Of a stretch of DNA of 64,000 nucleotides, positions 5,473-53,265 are shown one piece after another (position 1 is the stretch's first letter; every line of letters starts with the position of its first letter). Made by a program: the position numbers and the translations under genes. Location of the stretch: NCBI GenBank assembly GCA_043806635.1, contig JAZDGT010000038.1, forward strand, positions 14,641 to 78,640. The letters run 5' to 3'. This stretch comes from Methanobacteriota archaeon. Its GTDB lineage: Archaea > Thermoplasmatota > E2 > DHVEG-1. The notes under the pieces were generated by a model. The model was not told where the DNA came from, made no database searches, and saw only the letters and a program-made list of their open reading frames with translations.

Positions 5473-6654
5473 ATGAACAAACAAACCATCCTCAAAGGAC
5501 TCACCCGAAACATCATCATCGTCGGATTCGTCAGCCTCTTCACCGACCTCAGCAGCCAAATGGTCTTCCCCGTCATCCCCCTCTTCTTACTCTCACTCGG
5601 CGCAAGCGCATCAATAATCGGACTCGTCGAAGGAGCAGCAGAAACCACCGCATCACTCCTCAAAGTCTTCTCCGGATACTGGTCCGATAAAATCAAAAGA
5701 CGAAAACCATTCGTCTTCGCAGGATACGGACTCTCCACCCTCACCAAACCCCTGTTCGCCATCGCGTACATCTGGCCGTTTGTCCTCTTCATCCGCGTCC
5801 TAGAACGCATCGGCAAAGGAGTACGAGACGCACCACGAGACGCAATCATCGCAGAATCAGTCAACTACTCCATCCGCGGAAAAGCATACGGATTTCAACG
5901 AGCAATGGACGGCATCGGCTCCTTCTCCGGCGCCATACTCGCCGTGATACTCCTCCCCATCTACGCATATCGACACCTCTTCCTCATCGCGTTCCTCCCC
6001 GGGATACTCGCTGTCCTCATCATCCTCTTCATCAAAGAAAAACACACAAAACAAAAGGATAACAAACAACCAAGAATAAAACTCAGCGTTGGCCTCAGAA
6101 AACTCCCCAGAACCCTCCAACTCTTCATCCTCGTATCAACCATTTTCGCCCTCGGCAACTTCGGCTACGCATTCCTCATACTTAAAACAAAAAGCATAGG
6201 GTATTCTGACGTCACCGCACTCACCCTCTACGTCCTCTTTTATATCATATACACCCTGTTCACAATACCCGCAGGAATACTCTCCGATAAAATAGGGAGA
6301 AAACCCGTCCTCATCACCGGATACCTCATCTTCGCAGCCACCACCATTTGCCTCCTCTTCACCACACAACTCGTCCTCCTCATTCTCGTCTTCATACTCT
6401 ACGGAGTCTTCTTCGGGTTAATCGACGGAGTACAACGCGCCTTCGTCGTCGACCTAGCACCCACCGACCTCAAAGGAACCGCACTCGGAACATTCCACAC
6501 CATAACCGGGATAATCGCCTTACCCGCAGGATTCATCGCAGGATTCCTCTGGGATACCATCTCCCCACAAGCAACATTTCTCTATGCACTCAGCCTCACC
6601 CTCTGCTCCCTCGCCTTATTCACCGTAATCAAAAACCCAAAACCCACTTCCTAA
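5473..6654 (+). CDS. MFS transporter
   Basis: 393 aa with about 12 TM in two halves joined by a basic central loop. MFS-like GxxSDKxGRK(P) loop motifs in both halves. Confidence 0.85.
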   Translation: MNKQTILKGLTRNIIIVGFVSLFTDLSSQMVFPVIPLFLLSLGASASIIGLVEGAAETTASLLKVFSGYWSDKIKRRKPFVFAGYGLSTLTKPLFAIAYIWPFVLFIRVLERIGKGVRDAPRDAIIAESVNYSIRGKAYGFQRAMDGIGSFSGAILAVILLPIYAYRHLFLIAFLPGILAVLIILFIKEKHTKQKDNKQPRIKLSVGLRKLPRTLQLFILVSTIFALGNFGYAFLILKTKSIGYSDVTALTLYVLFYIIYTLFTIPAGILSDKIGRKPVLITGYLIFAATTICLLFTTQLVLLILVFILYGVFFGLIDGVQRAFVVDLAPTDLKGTALGTFHTITGIIALPAGFIAGFLWDTISPQATFLYALSLTLCSLALFTVIKNPKPTS

Positions 6655-6746
6655 CCACACAAAAAAATATTCATACAACCAAAACATTTTCCAACCAAAC
6701 TCTATTCCATCCTATAAAACCAAACGAACACAACACGAGGAAAAAA

Positions 6747-7454
6747 ATGAACATCATCTTTTTCGGCGATAGCCTCACCAAAGGACGATCCGGACTCTCC
6801 TACGTACCACTCCTTCAACAACAACTCCCCCAACACAACATAATAAATCAAGGGAAAAACGGTGACACTATCGCAAGCCTGTACTACCGCATCAAAAACA
6901 TGCAACTACCTGATGCCATCGATATCGCCTTCATCTGGATCGGAGTCAACGACATACTCACCTGCATCAAATGGCCCTTCTCATTCATCCCCAAACTCCT
7001 CGTGTTCCAACCATGGGCGAAATCCGACGAAGAATTCACACACTACTACCAAAAAATCATTGACCTCCTCCACCCCCACACAAAAAAAATCATCACCGTC
7101 TCACCCTTATACATCGGAGAAGACATCCACAACCAATGGAACACAAGACTTCAGGAGCTATCAGAGCTCATCAAAATACTCTCAGAATCTTCTCCAAACA
7201 TACGGTATCTCGATTTACGAACACGATTCCAAACAGAACGACCCTCCCTCCCACCAATCTCCCCATATATCCCAAGTAGCACCGCATTACTCCTCGATGA
7301 AATCATCTATCATACACCTGAAAAGATTACTCGGAAGGGGAAACAACGAGGATTATATTATACGGTGGACGGTGTCCACCTCAACAAACGAGGTATACAA
7401 CTCGCCGCTCAAGTATTCCATGAGCAAATCACCCAATTGACACCAAGATCATAA
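6747..7454 (+). CDS. SGNH/GDSL-family hydrolase
   Basis: Starts MNIIFFGDSLTKG (block I, Ser nucleophile). GxND block (GVNDI). DGVHLN near the C-terminus (block V, D-x-x-H). The track ORF start at 6348 is an out-of-frame run-on over the MFS gene. Confidence 0.75.
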   Translation: MNIIFFGDSLTKGRSGLSYVPLLQQQLPQHNIINQGKNGDTIASLYYRIKNMQLPDAIDIAFIWIGVNDILTCIKWPFSFIPKLLVFQPWAKSDEEFTHYYQKIIDLLHPHTKKIITVSPLYIGEDIHNQWNTRLQELSELIKILSESSPNIRYLDLRTRFQTERPSLPPISPYIPSSTALLLDEIIYHTPEKITRKGKQRGLYYTVDGVHLNKRGIQLAAQVFHEQITQLTPRS

Positions 7455-14569: not shown

Positions 14570-14621
14570 ACTATGATCCCCCTTACTATTATTATATTCT
14601 CTATTATAAGAAATGAAAACA

Positions 14622-16082
14622 TCATTTTTTTGTTTTTTTCTTCGCCTGGTAATCCTTTATCGCTTCATGCAGTGCATCTGCTGCTAGGTTCGAACAATGC
14701 ATTTTAATCGAGGGTAACCCATCAAGTTCATCAGCGACATCCTTCCGGGTTATCTTCATTGCTTCCTCCAGTGTTTTTCCTCTTGCAAGCTCTGTGATCA
14801 TACTGCTTGTTGCAATAGCTGCTGCGCAATTATGAACAGCAAATCCTTTTACGAGATAGGAATGATCATCAGAAGAAACTTCATAATTATAGACATCACC
14901 TGTATAGTGAATTTCTTCTATTTTTCTTATAGGGACTAAAAAATATTTTTCTTTTCTAAACACAAAATGATTTTTTTTCTTTATATTTTTAAATGATAAA
15001 AGATACGAGTCTGATCCGTTAATCATTCTCCCTTCAATTTTATGATTTATTCTTTTTCGAATTCTTATTGATGCAAATATCCCATTTCTCGCTAATATCT
15101 GTTGCATTTGAATTGCTAGAGATTTCGACGCAGTTTCTATTCTGTACGTTTTTGAATCTTTAGATCTCCGCTTGTATGCATTTCCATCACCTTTGAAATA
15201 GGTTAAAAAAATCATCCACTGTTTTTTTGGTGGCAATCTCATTAATTCTTCAGATAATTTTTTATGTTTCGCGTTACTGCTACAATAGTGTTTTAGAGTT
15301 TGTACCAATTTTGTTGAACAAACGTAGATCTCGGCAATATTTTTTCGAATCCGTATTGTAGGAGTCTTATCTGTTATTTTTGTTAAAAGTGATTGAAGTT
15401 CATTTATATTGTTTGTTTCATTCTTATGAAACGAAAACGCGACAACTCTGCCCTTTGAAGCAAAATATCCTTCTGAGAGATAATATCCAAGCAGTTTTAA
15501 GAAATCTTCTGATAATGTCGGATTATCTTCAGAATTATTCAATGCTGTAAATATCAAATAATCTCCTTCTCGGAGAATATGTGCATCAACATAGTAAGGA
15601 TCTGTCGCGAGGAGCTCCTTTTTGTTGATTCTTAACCATTCACAGATTGAACTTGATCTACGTGTTTTTTTCAACCATTCTCTTTTAATTGCTAGCACTG
15701 GGTGATTAGGAGTCAGCATAAAAGAGTTGTACGGTGAAATAATTGGAATAATTTTCAATATTTTACCGTCATATTTTCTGACGTATCGTTGTGAAATACC
15801 AACATAATTACCGAATTTATTGATAACTCCTGCTGAAACATCCGAAATTTTTCCCCACGTCCCATCACCTAATACAATCTCTTCATCTTTAGGGAGGCAG
15901 CCGAATGTTTTAAATTTTATATCTACTAAGCGATTATTTTTTACCTTGATGTAAATCGTCATGAGATCCCCGCAGACCGGGTTCCCGACGGTTCCTACCC
16001 CGTCTGCATCCTTGATTTCCCCCATGTTTCTAGGGTTCCGGAAATGATCCATGACTTTTTCACTATAGATTGGACTCATCAT
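14622..16082 (-). CDS. iscU: IscU/NifU-type Fe-S scaffold interrupted by an intein
   Basis: The exteins join as ...GNPVCGDLM...KFKTFG + CAAAIATSSM...KMHCSNLAADAL, which gives the three IscU ligand cysteines. A 357-aa insert lies between them. Confidence 0.85.
   Translation of the reverse strand: MMSPIYSEKVMDHFRNPRNMGEIKDADGVGTVGNPVCGDLMTIYIKVKNNRLVDIKFKTFGCLPKDEEIVLGDGTWGKISDVSAGVINKFGNYVGISQRYVRKYDGKILKIIPIISPYNSFMLTPNHPVLAIKREWLKKTRRSSSICEWLRINKKELLATDPYYVDAHILREGDYLIFTALNNSEDNPTLSEDFLKLLGYYLSEGYFASKGRVVAFSFHKNETNNINELQSLLTKITDKTPTIRIRKNIAEIYVCSTKLVQTLKHYCSSNAKHKKLSEELMRLPPKKQWMIFLTYFKGDGNAYKRRSKDSKTYRIETASKSLAIQMQQILARNGIFASIRIRKRINHKIEGRMINGSDSYLLSFKNIKKKNHFVFRKEKYFLVPIRKIEEIHYTGDVYNYEVSSDDHSYLVKGFAVHNCAAAIATSSMITELARGKTLEEAMKITRKDVADELDGLPSIKMHCSNLAADALHEAIKDYQAKKKTKK
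14829..15899 (-). mobile_element. Intein with a LAGLIDADG homing endonuclease, inserted in iscU
   Basis: Begins CLPKDEEIVLGDG (block A). LTPNHP (block B, TxxH). LLGYYLSEGYF and FLTYFKGDGN (two LAGLIDADG motifs). Ends FAVHN followed by the +1 Cys of CAAAIA. 1071 nt = 357 codons, in frame. Confidence 0.8.
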
Positions 16083-16098
16083 TCACCACCGGTTTTTA

Positions 16099-17268
16099 TT
16101 ATCGATTCCAAAGTGGAGACATCAGACGGAGATGTTGCACGATTTCTGGGAGCACCTTCACCACGTAGGAGACCTCATCTTTGGTATTCCCTCTCCCGAG
16201 GGTGAAACGTAGTGACCCGTGTACTTGTTTTGGGTCAACACCAATCGCGGTCAACACATGGGATCCTTGAAGCTTCTTTGATGAGCATGCTGACCCAGTT
16301 GCCGCAGCGACACCTTTATCATTGAGCATTAATAAGAGTGATTCTCCTTCCACACCAGTGAATCGTACATGGGCGTTATTTGGTAATCGTTTCACCGGGT
16401 GCCCGTTCAAATAACTCTCTTCAATAGGGAGAATGCCTTTGATGAGCTGATCTCGGAGCTGAGTCAAATGTTTGGTATCCTTCTCCATCCTGGTTTGTGC
16501 AAGCTCACAGGCTTTCCCTAATCCGACGATACCTGGGATGTTCTCAGTACTACTCCGCAGTCCTCGCTCATGCCCCCCACCATGAATGAGCGGTTGAATC
16601 TTGACTCCCTCATGAAGAACCAACGCGCCGACTCCTTTCGGACCGTACAGTTTATGAGAAGATAATGATAAGAGATCTATCCCGAGTTTTTGCATATCGA
16701 TCGGGAGTTTTCCTACTGCTTGGACTGCATCCGTGTGGAAGAGGACCTCATGATCTCTTGCGATACGACTAATCTCTTCCACTGGCTCAATCGTCCCAAT
16801 CTCATTATTCGCAAACATGATCGAAATCAGGAACGTGTCTTTCGTAATCGATGCTTCTAACTCTTTCAGATCAACAAAACCTGAGGCATCAACAGGGATG
16901 TACTTCACCTTGAACCCTTGTTTCTCCAGATGTCTACAGGTCTCGAGTACAGCAGGGTGCTCAATTACTGAGGTGAGAATATGTGGCCCTTTTGAGTCCC
17001 GTTTTTCTTTATGCAGATATGCGACACCTTTAATCGCCATGTTATCTGACTCGGTTCCTCCTGCAGTAAAAATGATTTCTTGTTTCCGCGCATGGACGAT
17101 ATGGGCGACCTTCTCTCGGGACGCTTGTAAAGCATCGTATGCTTCTCGCCCGAACATATGCAACGAAGATGCATTCCCAAATATCGTTGAAAAATACGGA
17201 AGCATCGCCTCGACAACCTCCGGGTCAACTGGTGTCGTTGCTGCATGATCCATGTAGATCCGTTTCAT
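16099..17268 (-). CDS. iscS: Cysteine desulfurase (NifS/IscS type)
   Basis: PLP-lysine motif SSHKLYGPKG and active-site loop ATGSACSS. 389 aa. Adjacent to iscU. Confidence 0.9.
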   Translation of the reverse strand: MKRIYMDHAATTPVDPEVVEAMLPYFSTIFGNASSLHMFGREAYDALQASREKVAHIVHARKQEIIFTAGGTESDNMAIKGVAYLHKEKRDSKGPHILTSVIEHPAVLETCRHLEKQGFKVKYIPVDASGFVDLKELEASITKDTFLISIMFANNEIGTIEPVEEISRIARDHEVLFHTDAVQAVGKLPIDMQKLGIDLLSLSSHKLYGPKGVGALVLHEGVKIQPLIHGGGHERGLRSSTENIPGIVGLGKACELAQTRMEKDTKHLTQLRDQLIKGILPIEESYLNGHPVKRLPNNAHVRFTGVEGESLLLMLNDKGVAAATGSACSSKKLQGSHVLTAIGVDPKQVHGSLRFTLGRGNTKDEVSYVVKVLPEIVQHLRLMSPLWNR

Positions 17269-17271
17269 AGT

Positions 17272-18225
17272 TTAATCTCCCCGTCCAATTGCCATCATCC
17301 GCTCTAAAGGCACCGCGGCGTTCTTGATGGTTTCTGGTGACAAAAGAACTTGGGGCTCTAAACTTTCTAAACTCTTATAAACCTTTTCCAACGTAATCTT
17401 CTTCATATTAGGGCAGACCGCGGACTGCACAGGATAAAACTGTTTCCCCGGGTTATCTTTCTGCAACCGGTAACACATCTCCTTCTCCGTACCAATAATA
17501 AACTCTTTCACGGGAGATTGTGCCACATGATGCACCATCCCGCTGGTTGAAAACACGTGATCCGCGACGTCAATAACCTCTGGTCTGCACTCTGGATGGA
17601 CAAGTATCTCAGCAGCAGGATGCTGAGTCTTCAACTGTGATAACTCTTCTTTTTTTATCTTATGATGAGTCGGACAGACACCAGGCCACAAAATCATATC
17701 TTTCTCTTTTATAAATCGCTGAATATACAACCCAAGGTTTTGATCAGGAACAAAAATTACTTTTTTACTCTTAACACTCTGAACGACTTTCACCCCATTC
17801 GCAGACGTGCAACAGATGTCTGAGACGGCTTTCACGTCAGCGGTTGTGTTAATATACGCGACAACCTAAGCACCTGGGTGATCTTTTTTTAGCCCGATTA
17901 GACTTTCAACATCTACCATATCAGCCATCGGGCATTTCGCAGTGATATCAGGGATCACCACGGTCTTCTCCGGGTTCAAGATCTTGGCAGATTCCGCCAT
18001 AAAATCAACACCACAGAAAATAATCACTTTCGCATCAGTTTTCGTCGCTTTCTTTGATAAATCTAAGGAGTCACCAGTAAAATCTGCGATATCTTGCACA
18101 TCAGGGATCTGATAGTTATGAGCAAGAATAACTGCTTGATGTTTCTTTTTCAGTGCTTGGATATTGTTGACGAGTGTTTTTTTCTCCATAGGATGACTCG
18201 AAGAACGTGTATGTAATTTTGCCAT
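17272..18225 (-). pseudogene. nadA: Quinolinate synthase NadA interrupted by one in-frame TAG (17866-17868)
   Basis: The track splits it into 17866..18225 and 17272..17835. Reading through gives ...[35 protein letters not shown]..., collinear with archaeal NadA as recalled (..NAPVVLYVNSTAE..). Cys ligand contexts AKCPMA, GVCPTH and AVCPNM are all intact. Confidence 0.85.
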
Positions 18226-41121: not shown

Positions 41122-43230
41122 TTAATATTCCGTCACCTTGAATTTCCCATGAGCTGGCTCATAGATCTGACCATTCCGTTTCAGTCGATCCAAGACTTCA
41201 TCGACTTTACTGGATTCTATCCCCTGGATCTCTGCTTCACTGATAATATCAGTTCGTGCTGCATTCCCCTCAGTGGACTCTTTACTGATCCGTTTAATGA
41301 TATCAATGATGTTCCGCATCCGCTCATGCTGACTGTGACTAATCCCTGTGGCGATGACATCGATGTCGAACCGCCCGGTCTCTCGATCCATTCCGACCCG
41401 ACGCAAGTACTGATCAATGATCGAGATCGCCCGTTTCGCATCCTCAACCGTCGCCTCCTCACTCAGACGAATGCGCGCGCTCGCCTCAGCCAGACGCACA
41501 AACGCCTCAAGCTGACGAGGAGTAAACGGCACCGAATCCTCCGAAGAGCTACGGAAATCAACATAGTACGTCCGCAGCATATCTAACGCGTCATCGCTGA
41601 TGACGGGGAACACATTCCTCTTTGAATATGCGATGTACTTTCGTAACAACTCAGGCTCAAACGTCGGCATCACATGTTTCATCAACTCCGCTCCTTGCTC
41701 AGCGGAAAATAACGAATGCTTTGATTTGATGATGTTCTGCTGGATCTCCCCCGCCTTATGAGACAGCAGGATATGCGTTGCCATAGCCGTATCCTTCTTC
41801 CGATTCGGTTTATCAAGAATAGAAAAAATAAGATCAAAACGAGACAATAGCGCCGGCGGCATATTGATCTGCTCGTGAATCGGCAGGAACTCATCAAAAC
41901 GACCCAGCTTCGGGTTCGCCGCCGCCAAAATACTACACCGGGATTTCAATGTCGCGTTAATACCAGCTTTCGCCACCGAGATCTCCTGCTGCTCCATCGC
42001 CTGATGCATACTACTCCGATCAGTCTCCTCCATCTTATCAATCTCATCAATACACGCAACTCCCATATCCGCCAGCACCAACGCACCCGCCTCAAGCGTC
42101 CACTGCCCCTCACCGAACTCATCACGTACCGCTGCAGCCGTAAGACCAGCCGCGGATGACGCCTTCCCTGATGCGTACACGCTCCGAGGCGCAAGCTTCG
42201 CTATATAGGATAACAGTTGTGATTTAGCCGTACCCGGATCACCCACCAACAAGGTATGGATATCACCACGAATATGCGTCCCATCAGGCATCTCCTTCGC
42301 TATCCCACCGAACAACTGCAACGCCAATGCCTCCTTCTCAATATCCATCCCAAAGATTGTCGGCGCGATACTCTCCTTAATCTTCTCATAAATCCCTGGG
42401 TCCTGGCTCATCGACAGAATCGTTTTTTCATCCTCCTCAGTCACCTCGACTTCCTCAAACGCCATCTCCTGACTCTCCACACTCACCGCATCAACCGTCT
42501 TATCAAACGACGTCAACCGGAACGTCCCCCGACGCCGCGCCATCGAATGCAGAATACCATTCACCACCACCCGATCACCAGGCGCAATCTCCCCCACCAG
42601 ATCATCCTCCAAATACACACTGATACGCTCCGGCTGCGCACCACCACGCAACCCCTCAGGGTTCTCCTGAACCTCCACCTTCTGCGAATCAATAAACGTG
42701 GACATATTCGTCGTCAACTTAAACGAAGAAACACGACCGCATCCTCCCTGATCCTCAGAACACTCAGAAGGCTCCTTCAAAATATCTTCATCCTGATCAA
42801 TATTAATCACCGCACCACACTTCTGACACTGAAACGCACCCACAAGAAGCTTCGGACGCACCTCAGTCCGCTTCTTCACCAACCCCTCCACCGCCGCAAG
42901 CTTCCCAATATGACTCGCACGAATCTTCCGAATCAACACCTTATGCGTCTCAGGAATATTCACTACACGGAAATGCAGCACCAGCTTCTGCTCCGCCGCC
43001 ACATCAATCGACTTCAACGCCTCATCCGCATTAAACAACGTTTTATACGGCTGATTCAACAACAACTCCGCCAGCTTCGGATCCGCCTTATCAATCACCC
43101 AATAATCCACATACAAACTCTTTTTCTCAGGGTACTCCAACGCAAGCGTCTCAATCTCCGACTTGCAGTTCTCCTCAAAAAAATTCCGCCACGAAGCAAC
43201 TAAATTATCATCTTTCAATAACCGCACCAT
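41122..43230 (-). CDS. mcm: MCM replicative helicase
   Basis: Zn finger CQKCG...C..GGCG, Walker A GDPGTAKS, Walker B CIDEIDKM, arginine finger SRFDLIF, C-terminal winged-helix-like tail. 702 aa. Confidence 0.95.
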   Translation of the reverse strand: MVRLLKDDNLVASWRNFFEENCKSEIETLALEYPEKKSLYVDYWVIDKADPKLAELLLNQPYKTLFNADEALKSIDVAAEQKLVLHFRVVNIPETHKVLIRKIRASHIGKLAAVEGLVKKRTEVRPKLLVGAFQCQKCGAVINIDQDEDILKEPSECSEDQGGCGRVSSFKLTTNMSTFIDSQKVEVQENPEGLRGGAQPERISVYLEDDLVGEIAPGDRVVVNGILHSMARRRGTFRLTSFDKTVDAVSVESQEMAFEEVEVTEEDEKTILSMSQDPGIYEKIKESIAPTIFGMDIEKEALALQLFGGIAKEMPDGTHIRGDIHTLLVGDPGTAKSQLLSYIAKLAPRSVYASGKASSAAGLTAAAVRDEFGEGQWTLEAGALVLADMGVACIDEIDKMEETDRSSMHQAMEQQEISVAKAGINATLKSRCSILAAANPKLGRFDEFLPIHEQINMPPALLSRFDLIFSILDKPNRKKDTAMATHILLSHKAGEIQQNIIKSKHSLFSAEQGAELMKHVMPTFEPELLRKYIAYSKRNVFPVISDDALDMLRTYYVDFRSSSEDSVPFTPRQLEAFVRLAEASARIRLSEEATVEDAKRAISIIDQYLRRVGMDRETGRFDIDVIATGISHSQHERMRNIIDIIKRISKESTEGNAARTDIISEAEIQGIESSKVDEVLDRLKRNGQIYEPAHGKFKVTEY

Positions 43231-43290: not shown

Positions 43291-43621
43291 GTTAGCGGGT
43301 GTAGAAACCCCTTAAGTGGACGCACGTGCCATCTACTGACTACCCATCTGCGTTCTCAACCCCGTTAACCCTCTGAGCATCAGTAGTCTATGGTAAGGTT
43401 GCTCACTTCCGTGCCTCGCCCGGTTCCCACAGCAAAGACGCGACACATACTCCTCCGAGTATGCATCATCGTCACCCCTAATCCCAAAGGACAAGGTTTC
43501 ATAGGTAACAAATGGATCAATAGATGATCGTTACATCGCCTCGCAGATTCGACCCCAGCATATCGGCGATTTCTGGTTACAGGGAACGCCTAGCTCCCCG
43601 GTCTATTCTACACCTATCGCC
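43291..43621 (-). ncRNA. Signal recognition particle RNA (archaeal 7S RNA)
   Basis: The reverse complement contains CCCTGTAACCAGAAATCGCCGATATGCTGGGG (5' domain) and GGGAACCGGGCGAGGCACGGAAGTGAGCAACC (helix 8 with GGAA tetraloop and AGCA). Both closely resemble archaeal SRP RNA as I recall it. The 5' GGTGTAGAA pairs with the 3' TTCTACACC. An ATTTTTAT T-run follows the 3' end. The ends are approximate. Confidence 0.8.
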
Positions 43622-48366: not shown

Positions 48367-51300
48367 TCAAAAAAAATCAGAAAGCTTCGTCACCTTCACC
48401 CGATCACTCATAAACAACGAATCAATAGACTTCTCAACAAGCGCGATCCGCTGACACGCATACTCCGGGAGATGATACTTCAACGCGATCTCCTTCGAAA
48501 TATTCAAATACTTTTTCACCGACATCTCATGCACCGTAAGCGTAAGCCTCCCCTCGCACTGCGAACACACCCCCTGCAGAGGAATACGACGAAACGTCAC
48601 ATTACACGTTGGACAACGAACCGACTGCTTACTAAACGCACGAAGATTCCCCAAGATATCCGGCAGGAAATGCCGCTCAATCACCTTATACGCCACATCC
48701 GCCTCATCCACCGGCCGAAGCTTCGCTGCAAGCGTCAACTGCGTATTCATCTTCTCCATCATCGTCTTCAACGTCTTATACAACGACTCCTTCGGACCCG
48801 CAGACACATCAAACGTATCATGCGTAAACCCGAACTGCTCAAACTGAAGCTCAGTCCCAATCCGAGAGGACACTAAACCCATCACCGACTCAAGGTTCTT
48901 CGGATGCTCATGCTTCAACGACGCCTCATACAACGCCAACGGATACCGAGACAACGTATCAATATTATGCGCCTCCTTATCCACCTCCGCAGGATCAAGA
49001 CGTGTCGTCAGAATCAACGGCAGATCCATACGACCACCCCGCTTATCAGGAATATATGCATGCGAAAAATTCAACAACGCATCCATAAGCAACATCTGAC
49101 CATCTTCATCTCCATCGCAATTTTTTGAGAGAAGAGCATCATTAATAAGGAAATTATGTAGATCCTCCACTTCAACATCATACACGTACCCTGAATCAAC
49201 ATACACCGGGTGAATCTCCTTCACCGCATCAAGAACATAATCACCAACCCGTCCCACACGAGGTTTCCGCTCCTTCATCAAAACGGATTCCAATGCCTGC
49301 TGTTTCCTTCGAAGAGCAAACCCTATCTGTTGCGCGAACACGCGCGCAAACGAGGAACGAATATCCAACGTAAACAATTCAAAAACTCGGGTTTGATGTT
49401 TCTTCTCATAAAAGGTTTTTGCTAATCCTCCCGCTGGCTTATGCTCCTCACGAATCCGATAAAATATCCCAAAACGAAGCAACTGAAACCCGATATCCTG
49501 AAGGAGATCACGATCAACAGAACAACACGTAACATGAAGCCGGTTTTTCTCCACTGACCCATCACCAGCAAAATACGCCCGCAACAACCCACGAATCTTA
49601 TACAACGGCAGAGCTGTGAATCGGCAAGGAACACGTTTCGTCTTCGCATTCTTCCCAACACAAAGAATCCGACTAAAGAAATCATGAATCAACCTACTAG
49701 ACATCGCTATCCCATGATCATCGACGTAGGCATGAACATGAAAAACCTCATGGATACAATCAACAATATCCGCGCGGATCTCTTTCTCCGTCACAGCAAA
49801 CCCGACCTGATAACAATTCTTAGTGGTGTACCTGGTATGACCCTCAGCAAGATAATACCCAAGCAACCGCATGAATGCCTCATTCACCGGGATGAACCGT
49901 GGTATCCTCGTATCGTCTCGCTTCACACCCAAGAAACAATCCCGCGGAATAGACTCACGATTCTGACCACACAAATCAAGGACTTGGAAAAGAATAGTGA
50001 GAGGGATACTATCACGATACAGATAATCGGAGAACGTTTTCTTATTCAACTGTAATTTCTGTGATATCGCTTGCAATCCACCTGCTTGTTTGATACATTG
50101 TTGAACCAGATCATGAACACCTCGCACAACGAGATCATCATACAGACCAGTCTGGAAAAACTCAGAGAGAAGATCGATCTCCACCACATCATTCTCAGGG
50201 ACAGCGATGTTCTGAGACACCAAGAGTTTATCGTCCTTAGTCACCTGGATTATTTTCTTTGTCACCGCAGCATCCTCTGACCAGACCACCATGCGATGCG
50301 CAGGAGATGATACAAACGATCTCCCCGACTGCAACGTCACATGGACAAGATGATGTGGTGCCCGTGTTTTCATGACAGAGGTTATCTTTTTAATCTCAGT
50401 CTTCCCTGTGAGCGGATTAAAAGCGAACGTGCGTAAGTTACTGACTTGTTTCGCGGTTGTTCCGAAATCATCAACAACTCTCTCTGATGATGATGTACGA
50501 TTATAAATTTCTTGGAGTGGTAACATAGCAGGTTTCCCTGAGTCAAGGACATGAATCCGGGTCTCCGGTGAAAGACAATTTCTTCGTTTCGCTGCATGAT
50601 AAAACGGGTGTGAGAAGCATACCTGTGCATTGGTAAAACCAATAATTCTTCCAAGAGCACCTGCGGAGGTATGCGGCGCAAGTCCAACTACGAGATGACC
50701 AGTGAGATCCTCCAGTGTTTTAATTTTATAGAACGCATCCATTTTGTAGTATTTCATGAGGAGGTCATCGATGAAGCGGCTTATTTGGACGAAATATTCG
50801 GCGCATGATTTCGCAACAATCACGTCTTGAACCCTGAGTTCGCAGATCTGATCATCATGCTCGAGCTCGTTTCCTAGATAATCGTTCGTGTACCCTAATT
50901 CTTTGATTCTTTTCAGTGATACTCCAAGCTCATGGGGTTTGAAGTGGGTGAGCGGTGCATCCGTCATGTCGAAACGGCTGGTTCCGTCTTTGAAGACGTA
51001 CACGTTGTGTTTCGCTCTGAGGAGTCCTTTCTCGAGGGGTTCTGGTGTTTTGTTTTTGGAGATGGTGCCGATGACTCCTTTGATCGTCTCTGGGAGATCC
51101 CGTTCTTTTAATGCTTGTTTCGCTCGTTGAAGCTCCTCTGTAAGATTTATGGTATGTGTTTTTATTCGTCCGTTTGACGTCAGGGTGTGTGTTCCGCAGG
51201 CGCAGGTGACTTTGTAGGTTCTTTTCCCGCATGTTGGGCAGTGTCGGTCTCCGGCTTCGATTTCGATCTCGGTTTTTTCTGCTGCTGTCCTGAAGAGTCG

Positions 51301-53265
51301 TTGGTTTCCCCCATAGTTGCCAAGGGGGAAGAGGACGTGTGGTGGTGGTCGCATTTTTCGTGCTGCTGCTTTCTCTGGTCGTCCCATCCTGGCTCCGATG
51401 CGGAATGGTGCGCGGGCGTTGATGGGTATGCCTGCGAGTTGTGAGACGAGCGTTACTGGGTTTTCCTCGTTATTCGTAGTGAGGAGTGGGTATCGTGATG
51501 TTTCAATGATTGTGTTGTCGGTGATGTCGAGGCCGCTGCAGCGGATGAGCGGGTACGCGTATCGATCTATGAGGAGGGTTTCTTCTCGTTGGGTGTGGAG
51601 TGCTCCGAGTTCGATGAGGATGTCTTTGATGTGTTGGTTGAATGGTAACGATAGTTTCGGTTGGTTTGTTTCATCGTTGGTTATGGTTCCTCGTTCTTTG
51701 ATATATTGTGCGAGGGTGACGATGTCGGTTCGTTGGAGGTCGTGCCAGAACAGGTTATAGTGGGGGTGAAGGGGTATCTGATATTTTTCTGAGAGGAGGA
51801 ACGCATCCTTCTGTGTTGGTTCTATTAGGGTGATTTCTCTCTGGAATGTGTCGTTTATGGTTTTTTGTGTTTGTTCATCTGCTTGGACGATATCGTTCAT
51901 CGTATAGGTTTTCGGGAGGCAGGATACTGCTTTTTGGAGGTCCTGTATCCACCATTCATACACGTAACTTGAATCCGGAAGGAGGGCGTTGTTCTCCATG
52001 AACTCACCGTAGGGGATGAGTATTTCTCCGAGGTCGATGATGCGTTTTACTTCGCCTTTGAGGTCTTGTATGTTGTTGATTTGGACGAGATCATTATTCT
52101 CCAGTAATACAATTGGTCCTTCGATTTGGTCGCAGGGCGTCCCGATGGTTCCTTTCCCTGGTCGTTCAATCTTCATCTGGGTTCCGACGGTGATGAAACT
52201 ATCAACGATGTACATAGTTGCGGGGTTGATCGCGGTGGATGCTAGCCCGCCGGTGCGTGCGCGTCCGTAGCGGAGTCTGAAGCCTCCTTTTTTTGAGGGG
52301 TGGCTGAGGACTGGTCTTCCTGCGATGACTTCGCCGATGTATTTGGATGAGGGTGGGATTTGGGGGATGTCGCCGATTTGTTGTTCTTGTGTGGTGCCTT
52401 TGTTGACGAAGGTTTCGAGGAACTCCCAGCCTTTCAATTTGAGTTTTTTGATGTGTTTATGGATTTTTGGTGCTTTGAGACAGAGTCCTTCAGCAATAAC
52501 AAGGCAGGCGCCGCCGCGGAGGCGGTTGGTTCCGGCACGGGGTAGGTCGCGGTACCCGGTGACTTCTTCATCCTCGGTTCCTTCTCCGTTTATGCAGATT
52601 GGGCAGTTCTTCACCACGAGTTCGATTTCATCAACCGTGGGGAGGTACTGGAGATGCTGTACTCGTTTGTAGAGGGGGATTTCTTCTTTGTATCGTTCGA
52701 TCTCACCGAACGTGGGTTGGTAGCCGCCGATGTTGAGTTCCCTGCGAACAATATCCGCGATGAGGACACTCATCGCTTGACCAGTTCCTCCCGCGCTTCG
52801 AATCGGTCCTGAGAAAAACAAATCAACGTATGATGAACCGTCTTTGTTCCTGCCGAGTTTCACATCAGCGATGCCTTCGAGTGGTGCGACAAGTACTCCC
52901 TCGGTTAAGATGGCAAGGCCGGTTCGTATGGCTTGATCCAGTGCTTGTTCCACCTTAGAAAACTGATACGTTGTTCCTTTCGCGATTTCTCGTGCGATCT
53001 CGATGGAGACGAGTTCTCGGTTCCCTAGTTTTTTTGTTGCGGCACGGATCTTCGGTGCAATATCTTTTGGTCCAACAAGTTGTTCTACACGTGCTGCGAG
53101 ATCAAGAGCCTGCGGTATCTCAACAGTGCATTCAGGGTCTAACCCTTTCTTCCTCGCTAGTTCTGCAACCGCATAACAGGCATCGATTTCTTGTTGTAAC
53201 CGGGTGAAGTACGCCTGCATCATTGGGCTCGCTGCGATAGAATTGGATATACCCCCGTCAACCAT
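48367..53265 (-). CDS. polC: DNA polymerase II (PolD) large subunit DP2, containing an intein
   Basis: Collinear with archaeal DP2. The exteins join as ...HPFYHAAKRRN + CDGDEDGQMLLMDALLNFS. Zn modules CPTCGKRTYKVTCACG and CPTCN...CSQCEG. Confidence 0.95.
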   Translation of the reverse strand: MVDGGISNSIAASPMMQAYFTRLQQEIDACYAVAELARKKGLDPECTVEIPQALDLAARVEQLVGPKDIAPKIRAATKKLGNRELVSIEIAREIAKGTTYQFSKVEQALDQAIRTGLAILTEGVLVAPLEGIADVKLGRNKDGSSYVDLFFSGPIRSAGGTGQAMSVLIADIVRRELNIGGYQPTFGEIERYKEEIPLYKRVQHLQYLPTVDEIELVVKNCPICINGEGTEDEEVTGYRDLPRAGTNRLRGGACLVIAEGLCLKAPKIHKHIKKLKLKGWEFLETFVNKGTTQEQQIGDIPQIPPSSKYIGEVIAGRPVLSHPSKKGGFRLRYGRARTGGLASTAINPATMYIVDSFITVGTQMKIERPGKGTIGTPCDQIEGPIVLLENNDLVQINNIQDLKGEVKRIIDLGEILIPYGEFMENNALLPDSSYVYEWWIQDLQKAVSCLPKTYTMNDIVQADEQTQKTINDTFQREITLIEPTQKDAFLLSEKYQIPLHPHYNLFWHDLQRTDIVTLAQYIKERGTITNDETNQPKLSLPFNQHIKDILIELGALHTQREETLLIDRYAYPLIRCSGLDITDNTIIETSRYPLLTTNNEENPVTLVSQLAGIPINARAPFRIGARMGRPEKAAARKMRPPPHVLFPLGNYGGNQRLFRTAAEKTEIEIEAGDRHCPTCGKRTYKVTCACGTHTLTSNGRIKTHTINLTEELQRAKQALKERDLPETIKGVIGTISKNKTPEPLEKGLLRAKHNVYVFKDGTSRFDMTDAPLTHFKPHELGVSLKRIKELGYTNDYLGNELEHDDQICELRVQDVIVAKSCAEYFVQISRFIDDLLMKYYKMDAFYKIKTLEDLTGHLVVGLAPHTSAGALGRIIGFTNAQVCFSHPFYHAAKRRNCLSPETRIHVLDSGKPAMLPLQEIYNRTSSSERVVDDFGTTAKQVSNLRTFAFNPLTGKTEIKKITSVMKTRAPHHLVHVTLQSGRSFVSSPAHRMVVWSEDAAVTKKIIQVTKDDKLLVSQNIAVPENDVVEIDLLSEFFQTGLYDDLVVRGVHDLVQQCIKQAGGLQAISQKLQLNKKTFSDYLYRDSIPLTILFQVLDLCGQNRESIPRDCFLGVKRDDTRIPRFIPVNEAFMRLLGYYLAEGHTRYTTKNCYQVGFAVTEKEIRADIVDCIHEVFHVHAYVDDHGIAMSSRLIHDFFSRILCVGKNAKTKRVPCRFTALPLYKIRGLLRAYFAGDGSVEKNRLHVTCCSVDRDLLQDIGFQLLRFGIFYRIREEHKPAGGLAKTFYEKKHQTRVFELFTLDIRSSFARVFAQQIGFALRRKQQALESVLMKERKPRVGRVGDYVLDAVKEIHPVYVDSGYVYDVEVEDLHNFLINDALLSKNCDGDEDGQMLLMDALLNFSHAYIPDKRGGRMDLPLILTTRLDPAEVDKEAHNIDTLSRYPLALYEASLKHEHPKNLESVMGLVSSRIGTELQFEQFGFTHDTFDVSAGPKESLYKTLKTMMEKMNTQLTLAAKLRPVDEADVAYKVIERHFLPDILGNLRAFSKQSVRCPTCNVTFRRIPLQGVCSQCEGRLTLTVHEMSVKKYLNISKEIALKYHLPEYACQRIALVEKSIDSLFMSDRVKVTKLSDFF
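49120..50577 (-). mobile_element. Intein with a LAGLIDADG homing endonuclease in PolD DP2
   Basis: Starts CLSPETRIHVLDSG (Cys1 codon 50577-50575). SSPAHR (block B). LLGYYLAEGHT and LLRAYFAGDGSV. Ends ...NDALLSKN (Asn codon 49122-49120), followed by the +1 Cys of CDGDED. 1458 nt = 486 codons. Confidence 0.9.

Follow-up and report, generated by a model that had tools for sequence, protein, structure and literature searches.

A class-1 LAGLIDADG intein at a cluster-ligand cysteine of the Fe-S scaffold IscU

Inteins are often found at conserved catalytic residues because the DNA at these sites is a conserved homing target. The inteins with a homing endonuclease (HEN) that have solved structures are hosted by V-ATPase, ribonucleotide reductase and DNA polymerase; none of these hosts acts in Fe-S biogenesis. 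The closest described systems are the inteins of SufB, which is also an Fe-S scaffold. The Mycobacterium tuberculosis SufB intein has been reported to be stress-sensitive. It is 359 amino acids long with its HEN and is bounded by G252/C253 and H610-N611/C612 (PMC8891592; here and below, a slash marks a junction or insertion point). The +1 Cys of SufB inteins aligns to Escherichia coli SufB C254, a persulfide acceptor. In E. coli IscU, the cluster ligands are C37, D39, C63, H105 and C106; Cys63 coordinates Zn2+ and becomes disulfide-linked to Cys328 of IscS (PMC4243993, PMC2854127).

In the open literature searched, intein censuses and work on MIS/SMS included, we found no intein described in IscU or NifU, which does not prove that no earlier description exists. 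A sequence-only reading of this locus had supposed an IscU intein to be undescribed. The literature search is consistent with that, but the element itself is already common in public metagenomes, where database names miss the intein or label the protein ‘SufB’, ‘hypothetical’ or plain ‘scaffold protein’.

The locus lies in a 64 kb window (the whole stretch of DNA that was analyzed) and is syntenic with named Thermoplasmatales MAGs, which identifies the host as a Thermoplasmatales-related archaeon. The iscU precursor has 486 amino acids and a mass of 55.7 kDa. The sequence-only reading had placed an intein in iscU with a ligand cysteine as its +1 residue, and the location it gave is exact to the base (Table 1). 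The iscS and iscU genes share one operon orientation, which indicates the expected partnership with a cysteine desulfurase. The neighboring gene nadA has an in-frame TAG. Pyrrolysine or read-through at this codon is unsupported: TAG ends 6 of the 29 open reading frames in the window, and nadA orthologs have Ala or Glu there.

Table 1. Coordinates in the window of the iscU precursor gene, its parts and two further features
Feature	Position	Strand	Remarks
iscU precursor gene (N-extein, intein, C-extein)	14622..16082	-	486 codons + stop
N-extein, residues 1-61, end KTFG	15900..16082	-	
First ligand Cys37 (N-extein)	15972..15974	-	
Intein, residues 62-418, 357 aa, 41.5 kDa, pI 9.7	14829..15899	-	
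Block A, CLPKDEEIVLGDG, Cys62 = Cys1 nucleophile	15861..15899	-	C62 invariant 73/73
Block B, PYNSFMLTPNHPVLAI, TxxH (Thr124, His127)	15687..15734	-	T124, H127 invariant
LAGLIDADG homing-endonuclease domain, ~residues 186-375	14958..15527	-	I-DmoI / I-Tsp061I fold matches
LAGLIDADG motif 1, FLKLLGYYLSEGYFA, acidic Glu204	15459..15503	-	E204 in 72/73
LAGLIDADG motif 2, WMIFLTYFKGDGNAY, acidic Asp299	15174..15218	-	D299 in 71/73
Block F, TGDVYNYEVSSDDHSYLV	14850..14903	-	
Block G, KGFAVHN, plus +1 Cys419	14826..14849	-	H417, N418, C419 invariant
+1 Cys419 = second Fe-S ligand Cys of IscU	14826..14828	-	
C-extein, residues 419-486, with His462-Cys463	14625..14828	-	
Third ligand Cys (Cys463, C-extein)	14694..14696	-	
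iscS (class-V aminotransferase / cysteine desulfurase)	16099..17268	-	16 bp upstream of iscU
PolD (DP2) intein	48367..53265	-	class-1 LAGLIDADG, same genome

The insert belongs to the canonical class-1 inteins and contains a double-motif LAGLIDADG HEN; both its host and its site are new. Its first residue is Cys62, its block B TxxH reads T124-P-N-H127, and it ends in His-Asn followed by the +1 Cys. All of the splicing residues (C62, T124, H127, H417, N418 and C419) are invariant across 73 homologs. The intein blocks and the two LAGLIDADG motifs listed in the sequence-only reading were all found, in frame. In profile HMM searches, LAGLIDADG_3 (PF14528) matches the insert with an E-value of 6.6e-13 and 49.2 bits (gathering score 22.5), and TIGR01443 intein_Cterm scores 17.0 on the full precursor (cut-off 15.6). 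Pfam Intein_splicing (PF14890) is also positive, yet its 22.2 bits fall below the gathering score of 35.8, which is insufficient for an intein call by itself. What carries the call is the conservation of residues together with the TIGR01443 score, the matching fold and the recovery of an uninterrupted host protein.

The fold was assessed on the precursor as modeled by AF2 (pLDDT 89.7, pTM 0.80). Foldseek matches this model to the solved intein TliVMA (7qsu, E 8e-20) and also to PI-SceI and PI-PfuI; the E-values of these three matches, 8e-20 to 9e-13, support a Hint horseshoe. Across all the solved HEN inteins compared (7qsu, PhoVMA 7qst, PI-SceI 1vde/1ef0, PI-PfuI 1dq3 and PI-PkoII 2cw7; E 8e-20 to 2e-12), both the horseshoe and the LAGLIDADG domain are shared at an identity of only 11–16%. 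The LAGLIDADG domain, whose limits in Table 1 are approximate and were read from the secondary structure of the model, has the pseudo-dimeric alpha-beta-beta-alpha-beta-beta-alpha fold of I-DmoI and I-Tsp061I (TM 0.58–0.66 over ~190 columns). The extein part of the model resembles Archaeoglobus fulgidus IscU (4eb5_C) with a TM of 0.86 and an rmsd of 1.0 Å.

Removing residues 62–418 yields a 129-aa protein with the junction KTFG/CAAAIATSS, as the sequence-only reading had proposed, and this protein matches IscU. Pfam NifU_N (PF01592) covers it in one unbroken match (3.6e-51). TIGR03419 NifU_clost, with a curated cut-off of 187.9 bits, gives 198.0 bits for the precursor and 215.7 bits for the spliced product; this equivalog score and the ligand set place the protein among IscU/NifU-type scaffolds. 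Alignments to the structures of A. fulgidus IscU (4EB5_C, 8.6e-59) and Methanothrix IscU (7C8M) run over the junction without a gap. In them, Cys419 (C62 once spliced) aligns with A. fulgidus C58 and Methanothrix C63 and is the second cluster-ligand Cys, equivalent to E. coli Cys63. The HMM, alignment and model matches, to inteins as well as to IscU, far exceed chance.

The ligands C37, D39, C419, H462 and C463 are invariant in the 73-homolog alignment; C37 and D39 (73/73) both lie within the N-extein. Compared with an intein-free ortholog, the exteins keep 86% identity although the nucleotide identity is just 75%, a pattern that points to strong purifying selection. These observations bear on whether the gene is dead, that is, whether a non-splicing relic has inactivated iscU and the cell uses another Fe-S assembly system. 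The in-frame TAG in nearby nadA shows some gene decay or sequence error, and a second scaffold could lie beyond the 64 kb window. Nevertheless, the reading frame is intact across 486 codons, the splicing residues are as invariant as the ligands, the exteins are under selection and iscU has been kept directly downstream of iscS, so we consider a dead gene very improbable.

The intein is compositionally distinct from its exteins, with a GC content of 0.319 against 0.431 (0.43 in the surrounding DNA) and a GC3 of 0.244 against 0.45. The low GC relative to the surroundings is what an assembly or binning chimera, with the intein of a foreign gene joined into iscU, could produce. The likelihood of such a chimera is close to negligible: more than 120 independent clusters, drawn from four assembly sources, have exactly this in-frame architecture, the boundaries are codon-exact and IscU is reconstituted. 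We also compared synonymous divergence (pS 0.65 in the intein and 0.85 in the exteins) for signs that the intein is younger than the host gene, but dropped this comparison because, with a GC3 of 0.24, a pS of 0.65 already amounts to compositional saturation.

SufB inteins are homologous to the IscU intein (33–39% identity, E 1e-41 to 1e-74). Both are ~357–360 aa long, with the pattern G/CLP...GFAVHN/C, class-1 chemistry and a LAGLIDADG HEN. Their hosts, however, are non-homologous (the IscU fold and the SufB beta-helix), the target sites differ (KTFG/CAAAI in IscU, YIEG/CTAPI in SufB), and the +1 Cys of IscU, unlike that of SufB, ligates the cluster directly. SufB inteins form their own clade (bootstrap 99%), and the IscU intein is a relative rather than a member of the SufB allele at the C254-equivalent site. 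The two target DNAs are similar (GGN/TGY RCN GCN SCN AT-). As an account of ectopic homing between IscU and SufB this similarity was set aside, since no significance can be assigned to a single site pair.

Inteins in the beta subunit of 2-oxoacid:ferredoxin oxidoreductase (OFOR-beta; P0123, L018–L021), of which we know of no description, are sister to the IscU inteins. The joint clade has a bootstrap of 99%, with 38–41% identity and the same G/CLP...HN/C pattern. Their host enzyme uses TPP and a [4Fe-4S] cluster, and the site SGIG/CGSKTPHF aligns to Cys46 of StOFOR2-beta, a putative [4Fe-4S] cluster ligand; the StOFOR structure paper names only the Cys12–Cys15 CXGC motif, and a ligand role for Cys46 was not found in it. 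The PolD (DP2) intein of the same genome is only 26% identical to the IscU intein across the HEN region, and it sits in a classic replication protein for which NCBIfam models exist.

The IscU intein is widespread. At least 120 protein clusters (90% identity) from JGI, ENA, NCBI and Logan assemblies, on contigs of up to 1.1 Mb, have the identical FG/C...HN/C junction. The same insertion site is occupied in 18 GTDB species-representative MAGs from both prokaryotic domains, with a best intein match of 66%. The archaeal carriers among them are Thermoplasmatales, Nanoarchaeota, Woesearchaeota, Micrarchaeota and Iainarchaeum; the bacterial carriers are Omnitrophota, Planctomycetia, Clostridia, Nealsonbacteria and Saccharibacteria. 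DPANN and CPR are thus both included. All known carriers are MAGs or metagenome contigs rather than cultured organisms. Some IscU genes have a second, separate mini-intein at the first ligand Cys.

Presence is sporadic among close relatives. The locus L081 shares synteny with the window (NadA-IscS-IscU-...-QueC-x-PIN-HisRS) and has an intact empty site, GATATAAAGTTTAAAACATTTGGA/TGCGCGGCAGCTATCGCAACGAGC; the intein is present in the window, L083, L001 and L002. Intein-free IscU alleles are 87–92% identical to the window extein. In the phylogeny, IscU inteins form one clade (bootstrap 100%) with archaea and bacteria intermixed, including a Nanoarchaeota and Nealsonbacteria pair with a bootstrap of 95%. 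Sporadic presence, an empty site and a single clade across both domains together form a homing signature.

An alternative is that the intein splices but its endonuclease is inactive, so that it is a vertical passenger kept because precise deletion is rare. Many intein HENs are degenerate, and the occupied sites in the window, L083, L001 and L002 fit vertical inheritance within a Thermoplasmatales-type group. Against this, at least 71 of the 73 homologs retain each LAGLIDADG acidic residue. The HEN does not evolve faster than the Hint domain (dN 0.17–0.25 and 0.17–0.28; dS is saturated and dN/dS values are rough only). The best 120 clusters are all too long to represent a HEN-less mini-intein at the second-ligand site. 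The well-supported mixing of archaea and bacteria in the intein tree and an intein GC3 far under that of the host also argue against it, and we regard an inactive endonuclease as rather unlikely.

As a whole, the locus is very probably best explained by a class-1 LAGLIDADG intein inserted in iscU between Gly61 and the second ligand Cys that both splices and homes. We infer both activities. Splicing would begin with an N-S acyl shift at Cys62, followed by trans-thioesterification to Cys419, cyclization of Asn418 with His417 assisting, and an S-N shift. The predicted products are a 14.25 kDa IscU, its native KTFG-CAAAIATSS sequence restored, and the released 41.5 kDa intein, and the expected junction peptide of the ligated exteins is TFGCAAAIATSSMITELAR. 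The endonuclease would most likely cut intein-free iscU near ...AAAACNTTYGGN/TGYGSNGCNGCNAT..., and repair of the cut allele would copy the intein into it. Homing of this kind would account for the use of a single codon boundary by this element across distantly related archaea and bacteria, and for empty sites in close relatives. Since the 357 residues sit at the tip used for cluster assembly and IscS docking and splicing takes the ligand thiol as its nucleophile, mature scaffold would be available solely after splicing. It is thus sound to infer, as the sequence-only reading did, that IscU function depends on splicing.

Whether splicing is also conditional, or redox-sensitive as the sequence-only reading suggested, is a matter of speculation, by analogy to the related M. 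tuberculosis SufB intein. The +1 Cys is an Fe-S/Zn ligand and a candidate persulfide acceptor, with Cys37, His462 and Cys463 beside it. Once the precursor has folded, splicing might be blocked by a disulfide of Cys+1 with Cys1 or with a ligand (oxidation), by bound Zn2+/Fe or by persulfidation. The intein would then be more than a selfish element, since redox or metal status would set how much mature scaffold is supplied. As modeled by AF2, the extein halves of the precursor are already IscU-like (TM 0.86–0.92 to 4eb5_C and 7c8o), which could allow the ligand cluster to pre-assemble around Cys+1. The Zn2+ binding and IscS disulfide of E. coli Cys63 are also suggestive, as are the nearest relatives, the SufB inteins with their reportedly stress-sensitive M. 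tuberculosis member, the related inteins at SufB C254 and OFOR-beta Cys46, and the second intein at the first IscU ligand Cys. However, conserved catalytic residues are ordinary homing targets, and patchy presence in close relatives speaks against an indispensable regulatory role. We consider such a switch unlikely.

A broader version of this idea is quite unlikely: that one intein lineage has specialized on reactive Cys residues that handle sulfur or metal in Fe-S proteins, with IscU splicing gated by the state of the cluster site. The known sites of the lineage are the second ligand Cys of IscU, SufB C254 and OFOR-beta Cys46; the mini-intein at the first IscU ligand is separate. The gating signals would be oxidation, persulfidation or Zn/Fe occupancy of a half-assembled site around the +1 nucleophile.

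With the splicing and homing intein as the preferred reading, IscU, the central scaffold of ISC and minimal-ISC systems, joins the known intein hosts, with two sites that each use a cluster-ligand Cys as nucleophile. Automated surveys of Fe-S pathways may mis-score genomes in which such genes are misnamed. The inteins of IscU, SufB and OFOR-beta represent one lineage moving among non-homologous Fe-S proteins, and this lineage crosses between archaea and bacteria, DPANN and CPR included. With exteins of only 14 kDa, the IscU intein is a compact natural system in which to ask whether metal, persulfide or redox state at a catalytic Cys governs splicing.

The element that interrupts IscU is a homing-endonuclease intein. 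The sequence-only reading, which had proposed a LAGLIDADG intein here with an Fe-S ligand cysteine as its +1 residue, is real and correctly interpreted, and its boundaries proved exact (see table). Once residues 62–418 are excised, 129 aa remain, joined as KTFG|CAAAIATSS. This spliced product matches Pfam NifU_N as one stretch (3.6e-51), scores 215.7 bits against TIGR03419 ("Fe-S cluster assembly scaffold protein NifU"; curated equivalog cut-off 187.9), and, in alignments to two solved archaeal IscU proteins, 4EB5_C (A. fulgidus, 8.6e-59) and 7C8M_A, shows no gap across the junction. These alignments equate spliced Cys37, Cys62 and Cys106 with the three conserved IscU cysteines, so the +1 residue is the second ligand cysteine. 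In E. coli IscU, Cys37, Cys63 and Cys106 are cluster and zinc ligands (PMC4243993); Cys63 has also been proposed as a sulfur acceptor and makes a disulfide bond to IscS Cys328 (PMC2854127).

Profile searches of the 357-aa insert gave matches above threshold to LAGLIDADG_3 (6.6e-13) and TIGR01443 intein_Cterm, while Pfam Intein_splicing scored positively but under its gathering score. NCBIfam intein "exception" models (Tes, PolD, V-ATPase A, GyrA, RtcB) match the endonuclease and C-terminal parts. The intein blocks and two LAGLIDADG motifs claimed earlier are conserved in a 73-homologue alignment: Cys62 (Cys1), Thr124 and His127 (block B TxxH), His417, Asn418 and Cys419 are invariant, and of the LAGLIDADG acidic residues, Glu204 is retained by 72 homologues and Asp299 by 71. 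By sequence, no solved structure is close to the intein (best 1.3e-5). AlphaFold2 models the entire precursor with confidence (pLDDT 89.7, pTM 0.80), and the model's top Foldseek matches in the PDB are endonuclease-containing inteins: TliVMA (7qsu, 8e-20), then PI-SceI, PhoVMA, PI-PfuI and PI-PkoII. The extein part matches IscU (4eb5_C, TM 0.86, rmsd 1.0 A; 7c8o_C, TM 0.92) and the central domain I-DmoI-type endonucleases.

Most likely, this is a class-1 intein that excises by the standard pathway. A thioester would form at Cys62 and be transferred onto Cys419, Asn418 would cyclise, and an S-N shift would complete the reaction. The predicted products are a 14.25-kDa IscU and a basic 41.5-kDa intein. 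The same arrangement is found in the M. tuberculosis SufB intein, which has been studied in detail (G252|C253...H610-N611|C612, 359 aa, intact endonuclease; PMC8891592). The 357 residues interrupt IscU at its cluster-assembly tip, the end that is also turned towards IscS in the 4EB5 complex. Because of this location, and because the ligand thiol is also the splice nucleophile, scaffold activity should depend on prior splicing.

Intein-free IscU proteins 87–92% identical to the window's spliced extein occur in Thermoplasmata MAGs, and are closer to it than the exteins of any intein-bearing homologue among the matches listed. One of these intein-free alleles, on metagenome contig L081, which is syntenic with the window, reads uninterrupted ...AAAACATTTGGA|TGCGCGGCAGCTATC..., where the window has ...AAAACATTCGGC|[intein]|TGCGCAGCAGCTATT...; the intein thus splits a conserved target exactly at its Gly–Cys codon boundary. 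The LAGLIDADG domain would spread the element by homing into this GGN|TGY... target. GC3 is 0.244 in the intein, against 0.45 in the exteins and 0.39–0.46 in neighbouring genes. Endonuclease-domain dN (0.17–0.25) does not exceed splicing-domain dN (0.17–0.28); the divergence ratios, about 0.1–0.25, are only rough because dS is saturated. Judged by length, no endonuclease-less mini-intein occupies this site among the best 120 matches. Together, these sequence comparisons favour, short of proof, an endonuclease that is functional now or was recently.

Redox state, zinc, iron or persulfide might conceivably influence splicing. The extein halves are already IscU-like in the precursor model, an arrangement that would bring Cys37, His462 and Cys463 close to the +1 Cys and allows the idea to be tested. 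The patchy presence of the intein among close relatives speaks against an essential regulatory role, and inteins in general occupy conserved catalytic residues owing to target conservation.

The insertion is shared well beyond the window. A whole-precursor search found at least 120 clusters (90% identity level) in JGI, ENA, NCBI and Logan assemblies, all with NifU_N and LAGLIDADG_3 and of 442–649 aa, bar one 361-aa fragment. Among the matches listed, the junction FG|C...HN|C(G/A/V/T)AA is identical wherever present, and no source name includes "intein"; the names are "iron-sulfur cluster assembly scaffold protein", "hypothetical protein", "NifU-like protein" and, wrongly, "SufB". The annotation of six listed proteins (P0002, P0007, P0010, P0015, P0017, P0119) likely derives from the intein's likeness to SufB inteins, in which case a mobile element would have carried the annotation over. 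When an intein-only alignment was used to scan GTDB genomes, one for each species, the IscU-site intein turned up in at least 18 species representatives. They include at least two Thermoplasmatales, two Nanoarchaeota, two Woesearchaeota, a Micrarchaeota and an Iainarchaeum among archaea, and at least three Omnitrophota, two Planctomycetia, one each of Clostridia, Nealsonbacteria and Saccharibacteria, and three unclassified bacteria.

IscU has a second insertion site. Seven of the proteins listed (P0071, P0079, P0093, P0102, P0113, P0115, P0116; 636–649 aa) bear an additional mini-intein of 151–159 aa at GNPV|C...LHN|CGD, without endonuclease and with the first ligand cysteine as +1. In the Planctomycetia locus L007 both inteins are seen in the DNA, the mini-intein at about 5497..5946. 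A further search found the first-site intein alone in IscU proteins of 283–317 aa (P0389, P0391–P0394). Two of the three IscU ligand cysteines are thus intein insertion points.

With the intein as sole query, 1.84 billion representatives were searched without a profile, giving 4545 matches, 41 of them below 1e-30. The best outside IscU were in SufB (intein about 235–250 residues in, 33–39% identity) and in the beta subunit of 2-oxoacid:ferredoxin oxidoreductase (OFOR-beta, 41%). In most remaining loci of the genome scan the host is SufB and the junction Y(I/V)EG|CLP...GFAVHN|C(T/S)AP, and four (L018–L021, match about 5727–7092 each) have SGIG|CLP...HN|CGSKTPHF, the OFOR-beta junction of protein P0123. 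SufB inteins (L022, L024–L080) make up the majority of at least 525 confirmed matches in species-representative genomes and are very widespread, in numerous phyla of bacteria and archaea; whenever the junction is readable, their site is (Y/N/T)xEG|C(T/S)AP. A neighbour-joining tree (100 bootstraps) sorts inteins by insertion site, with support of 100 for IscU inteins minus a divergent Saccharibacteria copy, 100 for OFOR-beta, 99 for SufB, 99 for all IscU plus OFOR-beta inteins, and 95 for a Nanoarchaeota and Nealsonbacteria (CPR) pair inside the IscU clade. By alignment, the +1 Cys of the OFOR-beta inteins is Cys46 of S. tokodaii OFOR2-beta (5b46_B), a putative [4Fe-4S] ligand; Cys12 and Cys15 are the only ones named in the structure paper. 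We know of no description of OFOR-beta inteins. When spliced hosts are aligned to solved structures, the +1 Cys of SufB inteins is E. coli SufB Cys254. A 2026 preprint (PMC13228346) describes this residue as the accepted site that receives persulfide from SufE and states that cluster assembly requires it.

Features in the window
Feature	Position	Strand	Evidence or remark
iscU-queC gap	14570..14621		52 bp
iscU precursor ORF, 486 codons	14622..16082	minus	ORF in window
Intein, residue 62 (CLPKDE...) to residues 417-418 (HN)	14829..15899	minus	exact coordinate match; residue 419 = Cys
nadA (quinolinate synthase)	17272..18189		one in-frame TAG
In-frame TAG in nadA	17866..17868	minus	HPGA*VVAYINTT
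Giant ORF, 2636 aa	25115..33025	minus	adjacent to next
Giant ORF, 2592 aa	33201..40979	minus
MCM helicase gene	41122..43230		no intein domain (Pfam scan)
Archaeal SRP RNA	43299..43613	minus	Rfam RF01857, 207 bits; adjoins MCM helicase gene
DNA polymerase D large subunit (DP2), 1632 aa	48367..53265	minus	own LAGLIDADG intein
DP2 intein	about 49114..50577		roughly residues 897-1384

The gene order nadA-iscS-iscU-queC, followed on the opposite strand by a 280-aa ORF, a PIN-domain gene and hisS, is common to two "Thermoplasmatales archaeon" MAGs (L001, L002) and two metagenome contigs (L081, L083), with neighbouring proteins 50–72% identical. This synteny and the names of the MAGs make a Thermoplasmatales-related archaeon the probable source. 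A PTPS/QueD-like gene between iscU and queC in relatives (L081, 4312..4782; L083, 9186..9671) is missing from the window. The TAG in nadA is probably a nonsense mutation or sequence error, not recoding; the L081 and L083 orthologues are intact (304 and 305 aa) with Ala or Glu at that position, and TAG terminates 6 of 29 window ORFs. In tblastn, one giant ORF matched SufB weakly (E 0.009), and this match is probably spurious. The DP2 intein, whose endonuclease region shares only 26% identity with the IscU intein, brings the count for this archaeon to at least two within 64 kb.

We found no mention of an intein in IscU or NifU in the open-access literature, including intein censuses, intein databases from 2019 onwards and minimal MIS/SMS systems, and NCBIfam has no "intein-containing" exception model for this protein. 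What is new is thus the host and the site, since the element belongs to a known, canonical kind; as a new intein allele it is of moderate interest. Three things add to that interest: the element's occurrence in uncultured archaea and bacteria alike, its relationship to SufB and OFOR-beta inteins that also sit at functional cysteines, and the additional IscU site, at the first ligand cysteine.
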